Source of the DNA: Escherichia coli
Lineage (GTDB): Bacteria; Pseudomonadota; Gammaproteobacteria; Enterobacterales; Enterobacteriaceae
DNA length: 14,890 nucleotides
Assembly (NCBI RefSeq): GCF_003334255.1
Contig: NZ_QOWU01000078.1
Direction: 5' to 3' (one strand)
Shown: positions 1 to 14,787 of the stretch, in pieces
Layout of the letters: every line of letters begins with the position of its first letter
Position numbering within the stretch: the first letter of the stretch is position 1
Notes under the pieces: generated by a model
The model's database searches: none
Told to the model about the DNA's origin: nothing
The model's input: the letters and a program-made list of their open reading frames with translations, nothing else
Made by a program: the position numbers and the translations under genes

Positions 1-105
1 ACGCGAGGCATCGTCTTAACGAGGCACCGAGGCGTCGCATTCTTCAGATGGTTCAACCCTTAAGTTAGCGCTTATGGGACTTCCCCCCCTGATAATGCCT
101 GATAT

Positions 106-1650
106 TTACAGGTGTACTTCATCAATGTCTAACAATGACTTTTGAAGCACTTCAAAGACTGAACTATGGTCAAAGTCTTTGTTTTCTCGTGCAACTGAAA
201 TACCAGAGAAAGATTTACCATTCAATAAGCGTATAGTTATTTCTTGCTTGTAGTAGTCAAAAATCATCTCTTTGATAAATGACTTTATGGCAAGTTGTAG
301 TTTGATACGTCCCTCTACAGTTTTCCGGTCACTGTCTTGGATATCATTGTCTGACCTTAATGACTGGATAGCTTCAGCCTGTCTTAAATCCTTCTTCTTA
401 GATTCAAGTTCAACACGGTTGTTTGTTATTCTTTGGGCTAATGTGTCAAGGTCACCCAATCCTCTTTCTGCAAGGCTAATTAGGTTATTAATCCCTTTTT
501 CTAGTGATGTGATATCGGCTTTAAGCGTGGTAACAGAAATATTGTCACCATTACTCTTAAGGCTCAGATACTGAAGTGTGGGGAATACCTTTTGAATGAG
601 TATATCTTCAATCAATGAACGGTTAAATGCCTTAGAATTACAACGTCCAAGTTGACGATTACGACATTCAAGATAGCCTCTAGGGTAGCGTCCTTCTGGT
701 GTCTTCTTGGTATTACGCTGACGCAGTGTAGAACCACATTCTGCACACTTGCATATCCCTTTAAAGATATCAATAGAACTTGGTTGTCGTGAGGTTGGCT
801 TCTTGCCTTTGCCTTGACCTCTAATCATCTGTACGGCATGAAACTTTTCTTTTGAAATAGCAGGGGGGAAATAGTCACTGACTCCGTAAGCAACGCCAAT
901 TAGAGACTCCTTTAATAAAAGGTCACGTACTCTTGTAGGTGTCCAGCCTGTGTCTACCTTTTTATTCGTAATGGTGGGGATGTTTTCAAGATTTAAATCT
1001 CTGGCGATTGCATGTAGTGATTTTCCTGAAAGTTTTTCGTCAAAGATTCTATGAATTGTTTCTACGTGGTGAGGTATTAACGAAAATGATTTTCCGTCAG
1101 AATTGAGTTTTAACCATCCGGGGCAATTACCGGTTATCTTTGTTCCATCCTGTTCAAACTGTTGTCGTTTATGTGACCATACCTTTTTAATACGGTCAGA
1201 TTTAATAACAGACTCGTTATGGCTACGCTCTTGTAGGATAATCATTCTGATTAATGCGAGAGAATCATCAAGAGATTGGCGGTTATACGTTTCACCGTCG
1301 CTTAGAGTGACAACCGTAATACCTTGCTCAAGAATAGCCCTGATAGTTTCCTGTGCATGGCTGATTGACTGACGGCTTACACGGTCTAACGATTCCACCA
1401 GCAAGACAGAATCTGGCGGTATCAGACCTTGCTTAACAGCTTCAAGAAAAGCCCTGAGTGCTCCACCTTCTTTTAGATGGTCACCGTGAAAGGCTGAACG
1501 ACCTAAATCTTCAAAACTAAGAGATTCGTCTAGGATGTGGTCTGGATGGCTGGCTAACCAATCCTGTATGGCCTTACTCTGTCTTCGATGACTATCACCA
1601 AAAGCTTGTTTCGTTGACGAAAAGCGAATGTAACTGTAAACCTTCCTCAT
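106..1650 (-). CDS. Large serine recombinase (serine integrase; resolvase-type catalytic domain + recombinase domain + zinc ribbon + C-terminal coiled coil)
   Basis: 514-aa ORF. N-terminus YIRFSSTKQ fits the resolvase/invertase catalytic serine motif. A Cys cluster (CKCAECGS...YLECRNRQLGRCNS) fits the zinc-ribbon domain, and the C-terminus is heptad-rich and coiled-coil-like. An in-frame stop lies 6 codons upstream of the ATG, and there is no clear Shine-Dalgarno sequence. Confidence 0.85.
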   Translation of the reverse strand: MRKVYSYIRFSSTKQAFGDSHRRQSKAIQDWLASHPDHILDESLSFEDLGRSAFHGDHLKEGGALRAFLEAVKQGLIPPDSVLLVESLDRVSRQSISHAQETIRAILEQGITVVTLSDGETYNRQSLDDSLALIRMIILQERSHNESVIKSDRIKKVWSHKRQQFEQDGTKITGNCPGWLKLNSDGKSFSLIPHHVETIHRIFDEKLSGKSLHAIARDLNLENIPTITNKKVDTGWTPTRVRDLLLKESLIGVAYGVSDYFPPAISKEKFHAVQMIRGQGKGKKPTSRQPSSIDIFKGICKCAECGSTLRQRNTKKTPEGRYPRGYLECRNRQLGRCNSKAFNRSLIEDILIQKVFPTLQYLSLKSNGDNISVTTLKADITSLEKGINNLISLAERGLGDLDTLAQRITNNRVELESKKKDLRQAEAIQSLRSDNDIQDSDRKTVEGRIKLQLAIKSFIKEMIFDYYKQEITIRLLNGKSFSGISVARENKDFDHSSVFEVLQKSLLDIDEVHL

Positions 1651-1704: not shown

Positions 1705-1734
1705 TTAGGAAGTGAAAATCATGATTTTACGCAT
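1705..1734 (-). pseudogene. dinB: dinB (DNA polymerase IV) 5' end, truncated: 14 nt of dinB (ATGCGTAAAATCAT) fused to element DNA, giving a 9-codon ORF (MRKIMIFTS*)
   Basis: The minus strand reads GAGGTGAGCA-ATGCGTAAAATCAT, matching the recalled dinB ribosome-binding site and start (MRKI from MRKIIHVDMD...). The sequence diverges after codon 4 and hits TAA at codon 10. Confidence 0.7.
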
Positions 1735-1750
1735 TGCTCACCTCTCAACA

Positions 1751-1770
1751 CTGGTAAAGTATACAGTGAT
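1751..1770. promoter_or_regulatory. dinB: dinB promoter LexA box
   Basis: The minus strand reads CACTGTATACTTTACCAGTG, identical to the recalled dinB SOS operator, about 16 bp upstream of the dinB ATG at 1734. Confidence 0.8.
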
Positions 1771-1804
1771 TTCAGGGTTTGAGAAATGCGTAAAGATTCA
1801 GCAT

Positions 1805-2560
1805 TTAACGCGTTCGCTGCGAAAGCACCTGCTGCTTATCCAGCTTTTGCACCAGCGGCTGCACCACTTTATCCCCATGCTGACCAAAGTATTGATACAG
1901 CGTATCGGACGCACTTTTGGTCAGCACCATAATCTCAATGCGCCGGTTGCCCGCGCTTTGCGGATTTTTGGAATCCAGCAGCATCTGGTCCGCCATTGCG
2001 CTTACCTGCATCACTTTATCTTCCGGCATTCCGGCCTCTTCCAGCACCCGACGAGCCGAAAGCGCGCGGTCACCCGAAAGGTTCCAGTTGTTGTAGATAT
2101 TGTTTTTGTAGGCCATCGCATCGGTATGCCCGGTAATAATAATTTTATTATCGAGCGAGTCGAACACTGGCGCGAGCTCCACCAGCAGCGTTTTAAAGAA
2201 CGGCATAATCTTCGCGCTGCCGCGTTCAAACATATTGCGGTTCTGGTCGTCTTTAATCAGCACGCGTAATCCCTGGGGAACAATCTCCATCTCCAGATTC
2301 GCTTCCATATGCGCATCACGGGCAATGGTGTTGATACTGGTTGCCAGCTCACCAAGCTCGGTGGCGGATTTCTTCTTCAGCAGCGCCGTTTTCTCATTCA
2401 CATCACGCGCTTTTTTCTCCGTCTCTTCCGGCACCGCCACGGTGGCAGGTTTTGGCGGATGAGACGGGCTGATTTTATTTAACGGCGACAGCCCACCACC
2501 GTTAAAAATCGACTGCCCGTGCAGCGCGGCGATAATGCTTTCACGCTCGGATTTACTGAC
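1805..2560 (-). pseudogene. lafU: lafU remnant (MotB-like lateral flagellar motor protein, N-terminally truncated Flag-2 relic)
   Basis: The translation has a MotB/OmpA-like C-terminal domain (NWNLSGDRALSARRVLEE...RRIEIMVL) but lacks the N-terminal transmembrane helix. The six-frame ORF extends to 2695 only by reading antisense through lfhA. Position between lfhA and PdinB matches K-12. Confidence 0.75.
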
Positions 2561-4274
2561 GCTGTTGACAATCAACTTTATTGTCGTCACCAAAGGGGCC
2601 GAGCGTATTTCCGAGGTTTCTGCCCGCTTTACCTTAGACGCGATGCCCGGCAAACAGATGGCGATTGACGCCGATCTTAACGCCGGATTGATCAACCAGG
2701 CGCAGGCGCAAACCCGGCGTAAAGATGTTGCCAGCGAGGCCGATTTCTACGGCGCGATGGACGGGGCATCGAAGTTTGTGCGCGGGGACGCCATCGCCGG
2801 GATGATGATTCTGGCGATCAACCTGATCGGCGGCGTCTGTATCGGGATCTTCAAATACAACCTGAGCGCCGATGCTGCCTTCCAGCAGTATGTGCTGATG
2901 ACCATCGGCGACGGCCTGGTGGCGCAGATCCCTTCCCTGCTGCTCTCCACCGCGGCGGCGATTATCGTCACCCGCGTCAGCGACAACGGCGATATCGCCC
3001 ATGACGTGCGTAACCAGCTGCTGGCAAGCCCGTCGGTGCTCTACACCGCCACCGGGATTATGTTCGTGCTGGCGGTGGTACCGGGAATGCCGCACCTGCC
3101 GTTTTTGCTGTTCAGCGCCCTGCTTGGTTTTACCGGCTGGCGGATGAGCAAACAGCCGCTGGCGGCGGAGGCGGAAGAGAAAAGCCTCGAAACGCTGACC
3201 CGCACCATCACCGAAACCAGCGAGCAGCAGGTCAGTTGGGAAACCATTCCGCTGATCGAGCCTATCAGTTTAAGCCTCGGTTACAAACTGGTGGCGCTGG
3301 TGGACAAAGCACAGGGTAACCCGCTCACCCAGCGGATTCGCGGCGTGCGGCAGGTGATTTCTGACGGCAACGGCGTGCTGCTGCCGGAGATCCGCATTCG
3401 GGAAAACTTCCGCCTTAAGCCCAGTCAGTACGCCATTTTCATCAACGGCATAAAGGCTGATGAAGCGGATATTCCGGCGGATAAACTGATGGCCCTGCCC
3501 TCCAGCGAAACCTACGGCGAGATTGACGGCGTGCAGGGGAACGACCCGGCGTACGGGATGCCGGTCACCTGGATCCAGGCGGCGCAGAAAGCGAAGGCGC
3601 TGAATATGGGGTATCAGGTGATCGACAGCGCCAGCGTGATCGCTACCCATGTAAATAAGATTGTGCGCAGCTATATTCCTGATTTGTTTAACTATGATGA
3701 TATTACGCAGTTGCATAACCGTTTATCGTCGACGGCACCGCGTCTGGCGGAAGATTTGAGCGCGGCGCTCAATTACAGCCAGTTGCTGAAAGTGTACCGG
3801 GCGCTGCTGACCGAAGGCGTTTCCCTGCGCGATATCGTCACCATCGCCACCGTGCTGGTCGCCAGTAGCACGGTGACGAAAGATCATATTCTGCTGGCGG
3901 CCGATGTGCGCCTGGCATTGCGGCGCAGCATTACCCATCCGTTCGTTCGCAAGCAGGAGCTGACGGTGTATACGCTGAATAATGAGCTGGAAAATCTGCT
4001 GACCAACGTGGTGAATCAGGCGCAACAGGGCGGGAAAGTGATGCTCGACAGCGTGCCGGTCGATCCGAATATGCTCAACCAGTTCCAGAGTACGATGCCA
4101 CAGGTGAAAGAGCAGATGAAAGCGGCGGGGAAAGACCCGGTGCTGCTGGTGCCACCGCAGCTGCGCCCTTTGCTGGCGCGTTATGCAAGGTTGTTTGCGC
4201 CGGGGCTGCATGTGCTGTCGTATAACGAAGTGCCGGATGAGCTGGAGTTGAAGATTATGGGGGCGTTGATGTAA
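2535..4274 (+). pseudogene. lfhA: lfhA remnant (FlhA-family flagellar export apparatus protein, N-terminally truncated Flag-2 relic)
   Basis: 579-aa ORF with FlhA-family motifs (VVTKGAERISEVSARFTLDAMPGKQMAIDADLNAGLI) that begins inside the conserved transmembrane region, so about 100+ N-terminal residues are missing. Length matches the recalled K-12 lfhA fragment. Confidence 0.8.
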
Positions 4275-4297
4275 GTATCCAGCATTGGTGCACAACT

Positions 4298-4487
4298 GCC
4301 GGATGCGGCGTGAACGCCTTATCCGTCCTACCGTTCAGGCACAAGTTTGTAGGCATGATAAGACGCGCCAGCGTCGCATCAGGCATCTGCGCATAACTGC
4401 CGGATGCGGCATAAACGCCTTATCCGGCCTACCGATCCGGCACAAGTTTGTAGGCATGATAAGACGCGCTAGCGTCGCATCAGGCAT
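4298..4487. repeat. BIME: four REP (repetitive extragenic palindromic) units in alternating orientation
   Basis: GCCGGATGCGGCGTGAACGCCTTATCCGTCCTAC (4298-4331) and GCCGGATGCGGCATAAACGCCTTATCCGGCCTAC (4399-4432) alternate with GTAGGCATGATAAGACGCGCCAGCGTCGCATCAGGCAT (4349-4386, 4450-4487). These are canonical E. coli REP sequences. Confidence 0.85.
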
Positions 4488-4497
4488 CTGCGCACAA

Positions 4498-4995
4498 TTA
4501 TGAAATGATACGCTCCCCGGCACTAAAATCCGTTACGTCCCCCGCCCAATCGATGGGATATAACCCTCGCGCGACATCGCGATGGAACGTTGAGAATGGC
4601 CAATCACTCACTTGCTTTACCCAACCATGCTTTACTGGATTTATATAAATATAATCAACATGATGCCTATAATCTTTGGTATTGCGGATGGCGTGCTCCC
4701 AAAAACGTGGTTGCCAGATATTTTTCAATCCACAAGCATGGGTAAATTGCTTTTTAATTTCCCGCCAGCGCGAGGAAAAATCATCATCGCCTTCAGGTAA
4801 TGTCCAGATACAGTGCATATGCTCTGGCAAAACGACCCAGGCGTTGATTTCAAAAGGCCTGTCTCGCTTAACTTTAATAATGGCGTGACGGAGCATCTGG
4901 TACTGGGTGGTCAAAAGTTGGCTTCGACGATTTCGTAAATTCACCGTGAAAAACCATGTTCCCCCCTTGATGTAATAACGACGATATTCAGACAT
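4498..4995 (-). CDS. rayT: REP-associated tyrosine transposase RayT (TnpA-REP, HuH family; IS200/IS605-like)
   Basis: 165-aa ORF matching recalled RayT/YafM (MSEYRRYYIKGGTWFFTVNL...), with the HuH motif (PEHMHCIW) and REP arrays on both sides. Confidence 0.9.
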   Translation of the reverse strand: MSEYRRYYIKGGTWFFTVNLRNRRSQLLTTQYQMLRHAIIKVKRDRPFEINAWVVLPEHMHCIWTLPEGDDDFSSRWREIKKQFTHACGLKNIWQPRFWEHAIRNTKDYRHHVDYIYINPVKHGWVKQVSDWPFSTFHRDVARGLYPIDWAGDVTDFSAGERIIS

Positions 4996-5090
4996 GGCGA
5001 CTCCTTTTTCTCAACGGTAAGAAGAAAAGGAAAGGTTGGCAATGAGGTTGTTTTATATCGGGAAAGCGGCTCGCAAATATTCGCGGGCTC

Positions 5091-5174
5091 GTAGGCATGA
5101 TAAGACGCGCCAGCGTCGCATCAGGCACCTGCGTACAACTGCCGGATGCGGCGTAAACGCCTTATCCGTCCTAC
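5091..5174. repeat. REP pair (BIME) on the other flank of rayT
   Basis: GTAGGCATGATAAGACGCGCCAGCGTCGCATCAGGCA (5091-5127) and GCCGGATGCGGCGTAAACGCCTTATCCGTCCTAC (5141-5174), in inverted arrangement relative to the 4298-4487 array. Confidence 0.8.
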
Positions 5175-5920
5175 AAAATCGTCTCTTCCGTCAAAATCCT
5201 GCGCGCGCCCAAAAAATGGTCCTGCCAGAAAGGTTCGGCTAATCGGCTTATCCGAATGGTTTCGCCGGTACGTGGCGACTCGATAAATTGCCCATCGCCC
5301 AAATACACGCCCATATGATCGGCTATCTCGCGGCTGTGGATATGGAAAAACAGCAAATCTCCCCGGCGCAGGTCGTTGTTCGCCACAATCGTTGCCCGGC
5401 GATAGTGGTACATCTCATTGGCCGTGCGCGGGAGCTTAGCCTCAAGGATCTTGTTGTAGGCATAAAAAACCAACCCGCTACAGTCAAAGCCTTTATCAGG
5501 CCGCGTACCGCCCCAGACGTAAGGCTTGCCAAGCTGCTGCTCCAGGCGGTGAATCGCCACTTCGGTAATGTTATGCAGATGGTCGCTGCTTAAAAAGTGG
5601 TTGTTTTCCGCCAGCGCCTGCCAGCGTCTGTCACTCGCCTTGAGCGGAGCAGGAAACCATTCTGGATGCTGTTTTATCTGCTCCCGGTTGTGCTGGCGTA
5701 GCGCCCTTTTGCTTTCGGCATTGCCTTCCACAATATAGCTGGCCTGCTTTTTCAGATGAGTTTGGTACTGTTTTAATAAACGCGCACGGTTTTGCATCCG
5801 CTGGCGGGCGGCGTAGCTGAAAGAGATATGTGATGTGGTGGCGCTGGCAAATGAAGAAAACGGCAAACAAATCAACAGTAATCCCGACAATACAAAGGAT
5901 GGAATCGACGGCAAGGACAT
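5171..5920 (-). CDS. yafL: NlpC/P60-family putative peptidoglycan endopeptidase/lipoprotein YafL
   Basis: The ORF 5171..5980 contains MSLPSIPSFVLSGLLLICLPF... from codon 21, giving 249 aa as recalled for K-12 YafL. The NlpC/P60 Cys motif (DCSGLV) and His are present. The start is chosen by homology, not by ribosome-binding-site analysis. Confidence 0.85.
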   Translation of the reverse strand: MSLPSIPSFVLSGLLLICLPFSSFASATTSHISFSYAARQRMQNRARLLKQYQTHLKKQASYIVEGNAESKRALRQHNREQIKQHPEWFPAPLKASDRRWQALAENNHFLSSDHLHNITEVAIHRLEQQLGKPYVWGGTRPDKGFDCSGLVFYAYNKILEAKLPRTANEMYHYRRATIVANNDLRRGDLLFFHIHSREIADHMGVYLGDGQFIESPRTGETIRISRLAEPFWQDHFLGARRILTEETIL

Positions 5921-6097
5921 ACTCAATAATGGCTGGTCATGCTTTAATGTTGCAGTGTATCCCGGATCGTTTCTGAACAAACTTAATAAACCATTATTAT
6001 AAAATTAACATATATATTTCAGTTAATTATGTAAAAACATCCGTTTATTAAATTACTCATGGATTGTCGCTGTTGCTCATTTGAGCTACAATTCAAG

Positions 6098-6113
6098 CTG
6101 AATAAATATACAG
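6098..6113. promoter_or_regulatory. LexA box in the dinJ-yafQ promoter
   Basis: CTGAATAAATATACAG (CTG-N10-CAG, AT-rich spacer), about 17 bp upstream of the dinJ ATG. dinJ is a known damage-inducible gene. Confidence 0.7.
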
Positions 6114-6129
6114 CACAGGAGATACCCCA

Positions 6130-6390
6130 ATGGCTGCTAACGCGTTTGTTCGCGCCCGAATCGATGAAGATCTGAAGAATCAGGCAGCGGACGTACTGGC
6201 CGGGATGGGGCTGACCATCTCTGACCTGGTTCGCATAACCCTCACAAAGGTCGCGCGTGAAAAGGCATTGCCGTTTGATTTACACGAGCCTAATCAATTA
6301 ACCATTCAATCAATCAAAAACAGCGAAGCTGGCATTGATGTTCATAAGGCCAAAGACGCCGATGATTTATTTGATAAATTAGGAATTTAA
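6130..6390 (+). CDS. dinJ: Antitoxin DinJ (RelB/DinJ family)
   Basis: 86-aa ORF matching recalled DinJ (MAANAFVRARIDEDLKNQAADVLAGMGLTISDLVRI...). Its stop lies 2 nt from the yafQ start. Confidence 0.95.
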   Translation: MAANAFVRARIDEDLKNQAADVLAGMGLTISDLVRITLTKVAREKALPFDLHEPNQLTIQSIKNSEAGIDVHKAKDADDLFDKLGI

Positions 6391-6392
6391 AT

Positions 6393-6671
6393 ATGATTCA
6401 AAGGGATATTGAATACTCGGGACAATATTCAAAGGATGTAAAACTTGCACAAAAGCGTCATAAGGATATGAATAAATTGAAATATCTTATGACGCTTCTT
6501 ATCAATAATACTTTACCGCTTCCAGCTGTTTATAAAGACCACCCGCTGCAAGGTTCATGGAAAGGTTATCGCGATGCTCATGTCGAACCGGACTGGATCC
6601 TGATTTACAAACTTACCGATAAACTTTTACGATTTGAGAGAACTGGAACTCACGCGGCGCTCTTTGGGTAA
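6393..6671 (+). CDS. yafQ: Toxin YafQ (RelE/YafQ ribosome-dependent mRNA interferase)
   Basis: 92-aa ORF matching recalled YafQ (MIQRDIEYSGQYSKDVKLAQKRHKD...), in operon arrangement with dinJ. Confidence 0.95.
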   Translation: MIQRDIEYSGQYSKDVKLAQKRHKDMNKLKYLMTLLINNTLPLPAVYKDHPLQGSWKGYRDAHVEPDWILIYKLTDKLLRFERTGTHAALFG

Positions 6672-6826
6672 AGCCCGCTTCCGATGAAATTTGTAAACCC
6701 TGCGCCGACAGGCTTGCGTAAAACTCTTTTGGTGATAATGTGAGCCTTCCAAATCCAGACTATTCCGATTTGGGATCCATTTTGCCGTCCTGGCGTGTGT
6801 AACCGTTTTATCAAGGAATAAGCAGT

Positions 6827-7567
6827 ATGCGTAAAATCGCATTAATTCTTGCGATGTTGTTGATCCCGTGCGTTTCATTTGCCGGTTTGCTGGGCAGCAG
6901 TAGCTCTACCACGCCTGTGAGCAAAGAGTATAAGCAGCAGTTGATGGGATCCCCTGTCTACATCCAGATCTTCAAGGAAGAACGTACGCTCGATCTCTAC
7001 GTCAAAATGGGCGAGCAATATCAACTGCTCGACAGCTATAAAATCTGTAAATATTCCGGCGGCTTAGGGCCAAAACAGCGTCAGGGCGATTTCAAAAGCC
7101 CGGAAGGGTTTTATAGCGTCCAGCGTAATCAGTTAAAACCAGACAGCCGTTACTACAAAGCGATTAATATTGGTTTCCCCAATGCCTATGACCGTGCGCA
7201 TGGTTATGAAGGGAAATACCTGATGATCCACGGCGATTGTGTTTCCATCGGCTGCTACGCAATGACCAATCAGGGTATTGATGAGATATTCCAGTTCGTT
7301 ACTGGTGCGCTGGTGTTTGGTCAGCCGAGCGTGCAAGTGAGTATTTACCCGTTCCGCATGACCGACGCCAATATGAAGCGCCATAAATATTCCAACTTTA
7401 AGGACTTCTGGGAGCAACTGAAGCCGGGTTACGACTACTTTGAGCAAACCCGTAAGCCACCAACCGTTTCTGTGGTCAATGGTCGTTACGTGGTCAGCAA
7501 GCCGTTAAGCCACGAAGTTGTGCAGCCACAACTGGCATCAAACTACACGCTCCCCGAGGCAAAATAA
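6827..7567 (+). CDS. yafK: YkuD-fold L,D-transpeptidase-like protein YafK (DpaA/LdtF, peptidoglycan-Lpp amidase)
   Basis: 246-aa ORF with an N-terminal signal peptide ([19 protein letters not shown]) and the YkuD catalytic region ([13 protein letters not shown]). A Shine-Dalgarno sequence (AGGAA) lies upstream. Confidence 0.9.
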
Positions 7568-14740: not shown

Positions 14741-14787
14741 GCGAATTATTTAGTGCAAAAAATCAGCATCACGTGATGCTTTTCCTG
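14741..14787. repeat. Direct repeat copy 2 (~47 bp) containing a 16-bp perfect palindrome
   Basis: GCGAATTATTTAGTGCAAAAAATCAGCATCACGTGATGCTTTTCCTG. AGCATCACGTGATGCT is a perfect palindrome with a CACGTG core. Confidence 0.6.

Follow-up and report, generated by a model that had tools for sequence, protein, structure and literature searches.

Positions 1697–1742 of the DNA stretch studied here, 14,890 nucleotides from Escherichia coli to which we refer as the window, probably make up a hybrid attachment site, P-AT-B', of a large serine recombinase. A phage-derived element would have given rise to it on inserting into the start of dinB, a locus at which natural strains carry the element in either orientation. 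We assign a probability of about 0.85 to the explanation as a whole, which includes an AT core devoid of polarity. If the host is read in the plus direction of the window, the hybrid site is attR.

Junctions between the element and dinB

The window contains one junction only, and the opposite junction was read from genomes that carry the whole element (GB089, APEC O18 and SCU-484). BLAST identity to genomes with an empty site, including K-12 MG1655, begins at base 1721, and alignment with the K-12 empty site places the element boundary at 1720/1721. On the minus strand, bases 1734 to 1721 read ATGCGTAAAATCAT, which is the first 14 nt of dinB severed from the remaining gene. After ATGCGTAAAATCAT, K-12 goes on with TCATGTGGAT while the window goes on with GATTTTCACTTCC.

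A preliminary description of this region had assigned bases 1715–1720 to the element and 1721–1728 to dinB, and had viewed the junction as a candidate hybrid serine-recombinase site. The split is borne out by the empty-site BLAST search and by the match to the dinB start, with one refinement: the AT at 1721–1722 is common to element and host. The view of a hybrid site is supported by the empty-site alignment, which mapped the boundary to 1720/1721 and not elsewhere, by a related half-site at the far junction (an inverted repeat on AT in 17–18 of 24 positions), and by the adjacent gene for a large serine recombinase.

In the window orientation, attB of K-12 reads ...CCACATGA-AT-GATTTTACGCATTGC... 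(inner part, ...CCACATGA-AT-GATTTTACGCAT...). The near junction is ...TTTTAGGAAGTGAAAATC-AT-GATTTTACGCATTGC..., and the far junction of GB089, APEC O18 and SCU-484 is ...CCACATGA-AT-AATCTTCACTTTCTTATGCACC... (inner form, ...CCACATGA-AT-AATCTTCACTTTC...). The bases that surround AT are TGA-AT-GAT in attB, TGA-AT-AAT in the far junction and ATC-AT-GAT in the near junction; on neither side of AT do attB and the element have the same neighbouring base (A/C to the left, G/A to the right). AT is the sole stretch common to attB and both junctions in this orientation, and no longer target duplication exists. Because AT is the sole overlap, an exchange with a 2-nt stagger can lie nowhere else, and the dinucleotide at 1721–1722, shared by attB, attP and both junctions, is the predicted crossover.

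Insertion in two orientations

The recombinase gene was detected in 26 of 5426 complete E. coli genomes, and in all 26 it is located at dinB. Two arrangements were found. Eight of the 26 genomes share the arrangement of the window, with the P arm and recombinase gene bordering on the side of lafU and the dinB promoter; the remaining 18 have them next to the dinB body. Ten further assemblies with distinct contexts and an identical protein all showed the latter, opposite orientation. Variants of the recombinase that are at least 98.8% and about 95.5% identical to that of the window occur in both orientations each. The junctions of the opposite orientation are ...ATGCGTAAAATC-AT-AATCTTCAC... and ...GGAAGTGAAAATC-AT-TCATGTGGAT..., with AT again at the core.

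A pair of near-isogenic strains, SCU-484 and NC101, illustrates the difference. Their flanks show 1 mismatch in 11,143 bp, and their 5.55-kb elements show no mismatches and one 7-bp indel; the element is, however, inverted exactly between the two AT cores.

Sites of serine integrases synapse, cleave and rotate equally in either alignment, and productive exchange is decided by the central dinucleotide alone, according to a published account (PMC3783163, citing Ghosh 2003 and Smith 2004). At dinB, an asymmetric core with a single insertion orientation was not found: the AT core is its own reverse complement and the site therefore lacks polarity, which makes the presence of the element in both orientations an expected consequence.

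The sequence of events might be as follows. A phage-derived element of 5.5–12.4 kb would have undergone recombination with the chromosome at codon 5 of dinB. A dimer of the recombinase would bind each site of ~40–50 bp, cleave all four strands at AT (1721–1722), leaving a 2-nt stagger, and then swap the half-sites. As AT is palindromic, attP × attB or attL × attR could be religated in either alignment. A change of orientation could take place by inversion in place (attL × attR in the other alignment) or by excision followed by re-integration, and both routes need a site-specific enzyme that acts at AT without polarity. The 514-aa enzyme encoded by the element is the candidate agent of integration and of the orientation events. 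The ratio of orientations is not 1:1 (8:18 among complete genomes, and all 10 further assemblies with the opposite orientation); selection or some asymmetry of the half-sites must also act to produce this skew.

A very unlikely alternative is that the integrase made the junction as described, whereas the orientations were generated by a small invertase of the Hin/Gin type or by another route. Inversion by Hin, Gin or Pin involves two inverted sites of ~26 bp, an invertase of ~190 aa and a Fis-dependent enhancer. A gene for an invertase of this kind, 181–204 aa, is present in every copy of the element examined, including the short forms of 5.5 kb, and the inner bases TGAAAATC presumably resemble the inner half of hix/gix sites (TGAAAACC). 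However, no invertase-type pair of sites, enhancer or second canonical site was found in the elements, and a scan of the elements for inverted repeats yielded noise only. The inversion ends at exactly the same bases as the integration crossover, and no resemblance to an invertase half-site is seen in TCATGTGG, the chromosomal B half-site, which nevertheless takes part in both hybrid sites. The invertase region is, furthermore, a mosaic of modules and not an invertible segment.

Symmetry of attP and position of the crossover

The P half-site (element arm) spans positions 1697–1720, with GATTTTCACTTCCTAAAACACCCC as its reverse complement, and matches the P' arm in 17–18 of 24 positions. The B' half-site is the chromosomal arm, made of dinB codons 1–4 and the 5' leader, and spans 1723–1742, the outer limit being nominal. 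When attP was rebuilt from the near and far junctions, the sequence obtained was TTTTAGGAAGTGAAAATC-AT-AATCTTCACTTTCTTATGCACC, with a shorter inner form of ~50 bp, …GGAAGTGAAAATC-AT-AATCTTCACTTTC….

The attP arms form an inverted repeat centred on AT, with 17 matches out of 24 in GB089 and 18 in APEC O18. Background symmetry has a mean of 6.1 and a standard deviation of 2.2, and a score of at least 17 was reached at 4 of 161,623 positions. If the centre is shifted by 1–4 bp, the score of attP falls to background. In attB the symmetry is weak (8/24). Comparison of half-sites gave 5/24 for B and P and 10/24 for B' and P, the innermost six bases of the latter two being identical. Hence, attP has ~50 bp with imperfect dyad symmetry on the core, and attB is distinct and less symmetric. 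Such anatomy, with a pseudo-palindromic attP of ~50 bp, a distinct attB and a central dinucleotide, is that of serine-integrase sites (PMC3783163, PMC3556126). In such sites, the outer motif contacted by the zinc ribbon is expected ~5 bp nearer to the core in B-type half-sites than in P-type ones. Here, the candidate stretch CACC was found at positions 19–22 in P and P' and at 17–20 in B', and was absent from B; a clean displacement of 5 bp was not visible.

These data bear on the location of the crossover. The preliminary description had remarked that a palindromic AT would be atypical, and that the crossover might be offset from the palindrome centre as a consequence. The first part holds, as the self-complementary core is real; the second does not, since AT is the sole overlap. 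An offset crossover, with the identity of AT being apparent only or the result of mutation after integration, is most improbable. An overlap of 8 bp (AAAATCAT) exists between attP and attB when the element lies the other way round, and seven crossover positions would be allowed by those junctions alone; in the window orientation, however, the flanks differ on both sides and only AT remains. Neither the identity of the junctions in all genomes read nor the location of the attP dyad axis on AT, with loss of symmetry upon a shift of 1–4 bp, agrees with an offset.

Searches for a free form of the site were negative. Exact searches with a 20-mer and a 23-mer of attP gave no match in viral and metagenome contigs; phage and plasmid records, like these contigs, yielded neither an intact attP nor a circular form. 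The match detected in plasmid records was to the end of an insertion sequence alone (window bases 1–95).

The palindrome at the junction

The sequence AAAATCATGATTTT at 1715–1728 is its own reverse complement, with its centre between 1721 and 1722. A check by reverse complementation thus confirmed the perfect palindrome that had been described earlier. The window has two perfect palindromes that are 14 bp or longer, compared with 1.32 expected in simulated first-order Markov sequences whose transition frequencies were taken from the window itself, and 73% of the simulated sequences contained at least one. A 14-bp palindrome is therefore unremarkable by its mere presence, and its significance rests on its position.

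The palindrome, AAAATC-AT-GATTTT, is the inner part of the hybrid P-AT-B'. Its perfection stems from the sequence GATTTT, with which, counted from the core, the chromosomal B' half-site and the P half-site of the element both begin. Such identity may well be a coincidence. The palindrome is absent from the junctions of the opposite orientation, and therefore it is not a conserved element in itself.

A reading of the palindrome as a chance occurrence or as an operator (for instance, a repressor site over the recombinase promoter), with a junction produced in another way, for example by transposition or illegitimate recombination, would accommodate the roughly one 14-bp palindrome expected per window by chance and the -35-like hexamer of the recombinase gene inside the palindrome, but is extremely unlikely in view of the recurrence of base-exact junctions across 26 complete genomes plus 10 other assemblies, a target-site duplication not beyond 2 bp, the strong symmetry of the attP arms, the large serine recombinase gene at the element end and the lack of a palindrome at opposite-orientation junctions.

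Two classes of junction were also considered and rejected. Transposons and insertion sequences are characterized by terminal inverted repeats, target-site duplications of at least 3 bp and varied targets; here, a single target was found in 26/26 genomes, with 2 bp shared. Attachment sites of tyrosine integrases go with a tyrosine recombinase gene, and their attL and attR have in common a core of some 7 bp or longer; the element carries no tyrosine recombinase, and the overlap in the window orientation is 2 bp.

The longest perfect palindrome of the window, 16 bp, lies elsewhere (AGCATCACGTGATGCT, 14765–14780), in a stretch of low GC content beyond an ISAs1-like ORF of 378 aa.

The recombinase and its relatives

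The gene at 106–1650 (minus strand), whose start codon is 70 bp from the crossover, encodes a product of 514 aa. Domain searches identified Resolvase (PF00239, residues 4–163, 1.5e-13), Recombinase (PF07508, residues 193–276, 7.9e-13) and Zn_ribbon_recom (PF13408, residues 295–355, 1.3e-8), and the comparison with the phrog_95 integrase gave 3e-73. The N-terminal motif YIRFSSTKQ, read from the sequence, fits a catalytic-serine motif. On the basis of these features, the predicted product is a large serine recombinase.

The protein forms an isolated cluster in protein searches. Its next relatives are E. coli and Citrobacter proteins of 507–509 aa with up to 39% identity, which leaves no close relative with known sites for a comparison of att sites. 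The closest sequence relatives are recombinases of the YbcK type (DLP12 and lambdoid E. coli phages), which share the three-domain architecture and the host species; however, their identity to the enzyme of the dinB element (34–39%) is too low for common target sites. In phage records, tblastn of the recombinase detected nothing above 34% identity, and hence no free phage with the attP. Among contigs representing one genome per species, the only matches were 22–25% identical and came from Firmicutes.

Content of the element and host background

Full forms of the element measure 11.5–12.4 kb, and short derivatives of 5.5–6.8 kb are common. The full forms encode a tape-measure protein, a baseplate or tail-fibre-like protein, an O/DnaD-like replication initiator, an invertase of the Hin/Gin type and the large serine recombinase. 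Among the element ORFs searched, none was seen to encode a capsid or terminase protein. To judge from its predicted gene content, the element is a phage remnant or a satellite-like element.

The orientation of the invertase gene relative to the large recombinase, as well as its neighbourhood, varies between copies (comparison loci L001, 18485–19054; L008, 11662–12210; L016–L025, about 4850–6070). We considered the possibility that the invertase region might be a simple invertible segment, and rejected it: comparison of copies revealed a mosaic of unrelated modules.

In the window, bases 76–1720 are foreign and 100% identical to a segment found in strains GB089 and 1218KP. Bases 1–75 are the end of an insertion sequence of the IS186/IS421 type (IS4 family), …CAACCCTTAAGTTAGCGCTTATG, inserted ~30 bp past the stop codon of the recombinase gene beside the run GGGACTTCCCCCCC (window 76–89). 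The copy of the element is thus interrupted at base 75/76, and its far end lies outside the window.

On the host side, comparison of window positions 1721–7500 with K-12 MG1655, which lacks the element, detected 1 mismatch in 5780. Among the genes in this part are lafU, rayT and the remnant of lfhA. The first 4.5 kb of the window are not matched over their whole length by any of the 5426 complete genomes. Taken together, near-identity to K-12 and lack of coverage indicate a K-12-like background outside the 5426 genomes.

The dinB start and its control region

Insertion separates the dinB body from its start and restores the latter from element sequence. The P arm rebuilds an in-frame dinB start, GTG AAA ATC ATT CAT, and the P' arm rebuilds GTG AAG ATT ATT CAT. 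The stretch GTGAA(A/G)AT(C/T) is carried by both attP arms (comparison loci L001, 10146–10168, and L004, 15625–15640), and therefore the dinB frame is restored in either orientation. The rebuilt protein would begin with MKIIHVD instead of the native MRKIIHVD, and the catalytic Asp is kept. Annotations differ on the dinB start: some use this GTG, with a 350-aa protein in certain cases, while others use the internal Met9.

In both orientations, the dinB body is cut off from the LexA-controlled promoter. Scans for promoters did not detect any promoter-like site facing the dinB body, whichever the orientation of the element. The idea that the element might supply dinB with a new promoter was therefore left without support by the scans.

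The severed control region faces the element. In the window orientation, the dinB promoter-like site (TTCTCA-16-TATACT, 1758–1785, minus strand) reads toward the junction. The LexA box CTGTATACTTTACCAG (1751–1766, minus strand), which is the dinB SOS box, precedes both the junction and the recombinase gene. Both read across the junction, through a fusion mini-ORF of 9 codons made of the dinB start and element sequence (MRKIMIFTS*, 1705–1734, minus strand), toward the recombinase gene, which lies 84 bp further on. Nothing like a terminator was found between the dinB promoter-like site and that gene.

The recombinase gene has, in addition, candidate control sites of its own. A promoter-like site, TTTTCA-17-TATAAT, identified by match to the consensus, is located at 1690–1718 on the minus strand; its -35 hexamer falls within both the P arm and the palindrome. 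Next to the start codon of the gene, at 1651–1666, is CTGTATATTTATCCAG, which resembles a LexA box. The variants examined retain this sequence, those of NC101 and APEC O18 with a single change, and it is identical in 15 of 16 positions to the box at 6098–6113. The latter (CTGTATATTTATTCAG) is a LexA-type box upstream of dinJ-yafQ, and served as comparison for the recombinase box. Control of the recombinase, and of recombination, by the SOS system is plausible from the arrangement of these predicted sites.

Comparison with known systems

In its predicted working, the dinB site resembles Bxb1 or phiC31 att sites with a core mutated to a palindrome. The large serine integrases of Bxb1 and phiC31 use, as predicted here, a 2-bp crossover on the dyad axis, with an attP that is pseudo-palindromic and an attB that is less symmetric. 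With an engineered palindromic core, both product orientations are obtained, as at dinB (PMC3783163, citing Ghosh, Kim & Hatfull 2003; Smith, Till & Smith 2004). There, however, symmetry of the core had to be introduced by mutation, as no palindrome is present in the wild-type cores (PMC3783163). In the dinB element, in contrast, AT is the natural core, both orientations occur in wild isolates, and the enzyme, known from its sequence, is not closely related to those integrases.

Location of an integrase-borne element inside a coding sequence has been described for Listeria A118/U153 in comK and for Bacillus SPbeta in spsM, with the integrase gene at the element end by the att site and an imperfectly palindromic attP of ~50 bp, as here (PMC3556126, PMC5499854). 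Those elements differ in having asymmetric cores (GG for A118) and one orientation, and they split a host gene that becomes whole again only when they excise (PMC3556126, PMC5499854). At dinB, insertion takes place at codon 5, and either arm rebuilds an in-frame start.

In the literature covered, which was incomplete, we did not find a description of an element inserted in dinB, nor of a serine integrase whose natural core is self-complementary and whose insertions occur in two orientations.

Significance

Serine integrases are prized because they act in one direction and yield one product orientation, and the latter is set by the asymmetry of the 2-bp core alone. The dinB element may provide a natural system with a symmetric core and a read-out at the population level, as both orientations are found at one site. 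The near-isogenic flipped pair and the existence of two orientations offer a test bed for unproductive inversions, for bias caused by half-site asymmetry and for SOS control. The attP/attB pair, native to E. coli and with dinB codon 5 as target, might also be of use as a tool.

One speculation, quite unlikely in our estimation, is that the element is a DNA-damage-controlled cassette without polarity, with which the start of dinB could be switched. With a LexA-type box at the start codon of the recombinase gene and, in the window orientation, the LexA-regulated dinB promoter reading into that gene, SOS induction would trigger flipping or excision. If this were true, flipping would alter the drive of both Pol IV and the recombinase, and strains could toggle a damage-inducible mutagenic polymerase. 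Independently of this speculation, dinB is uncoupled from its SOS promoter in 0.5% of the complete E. coli genomes.
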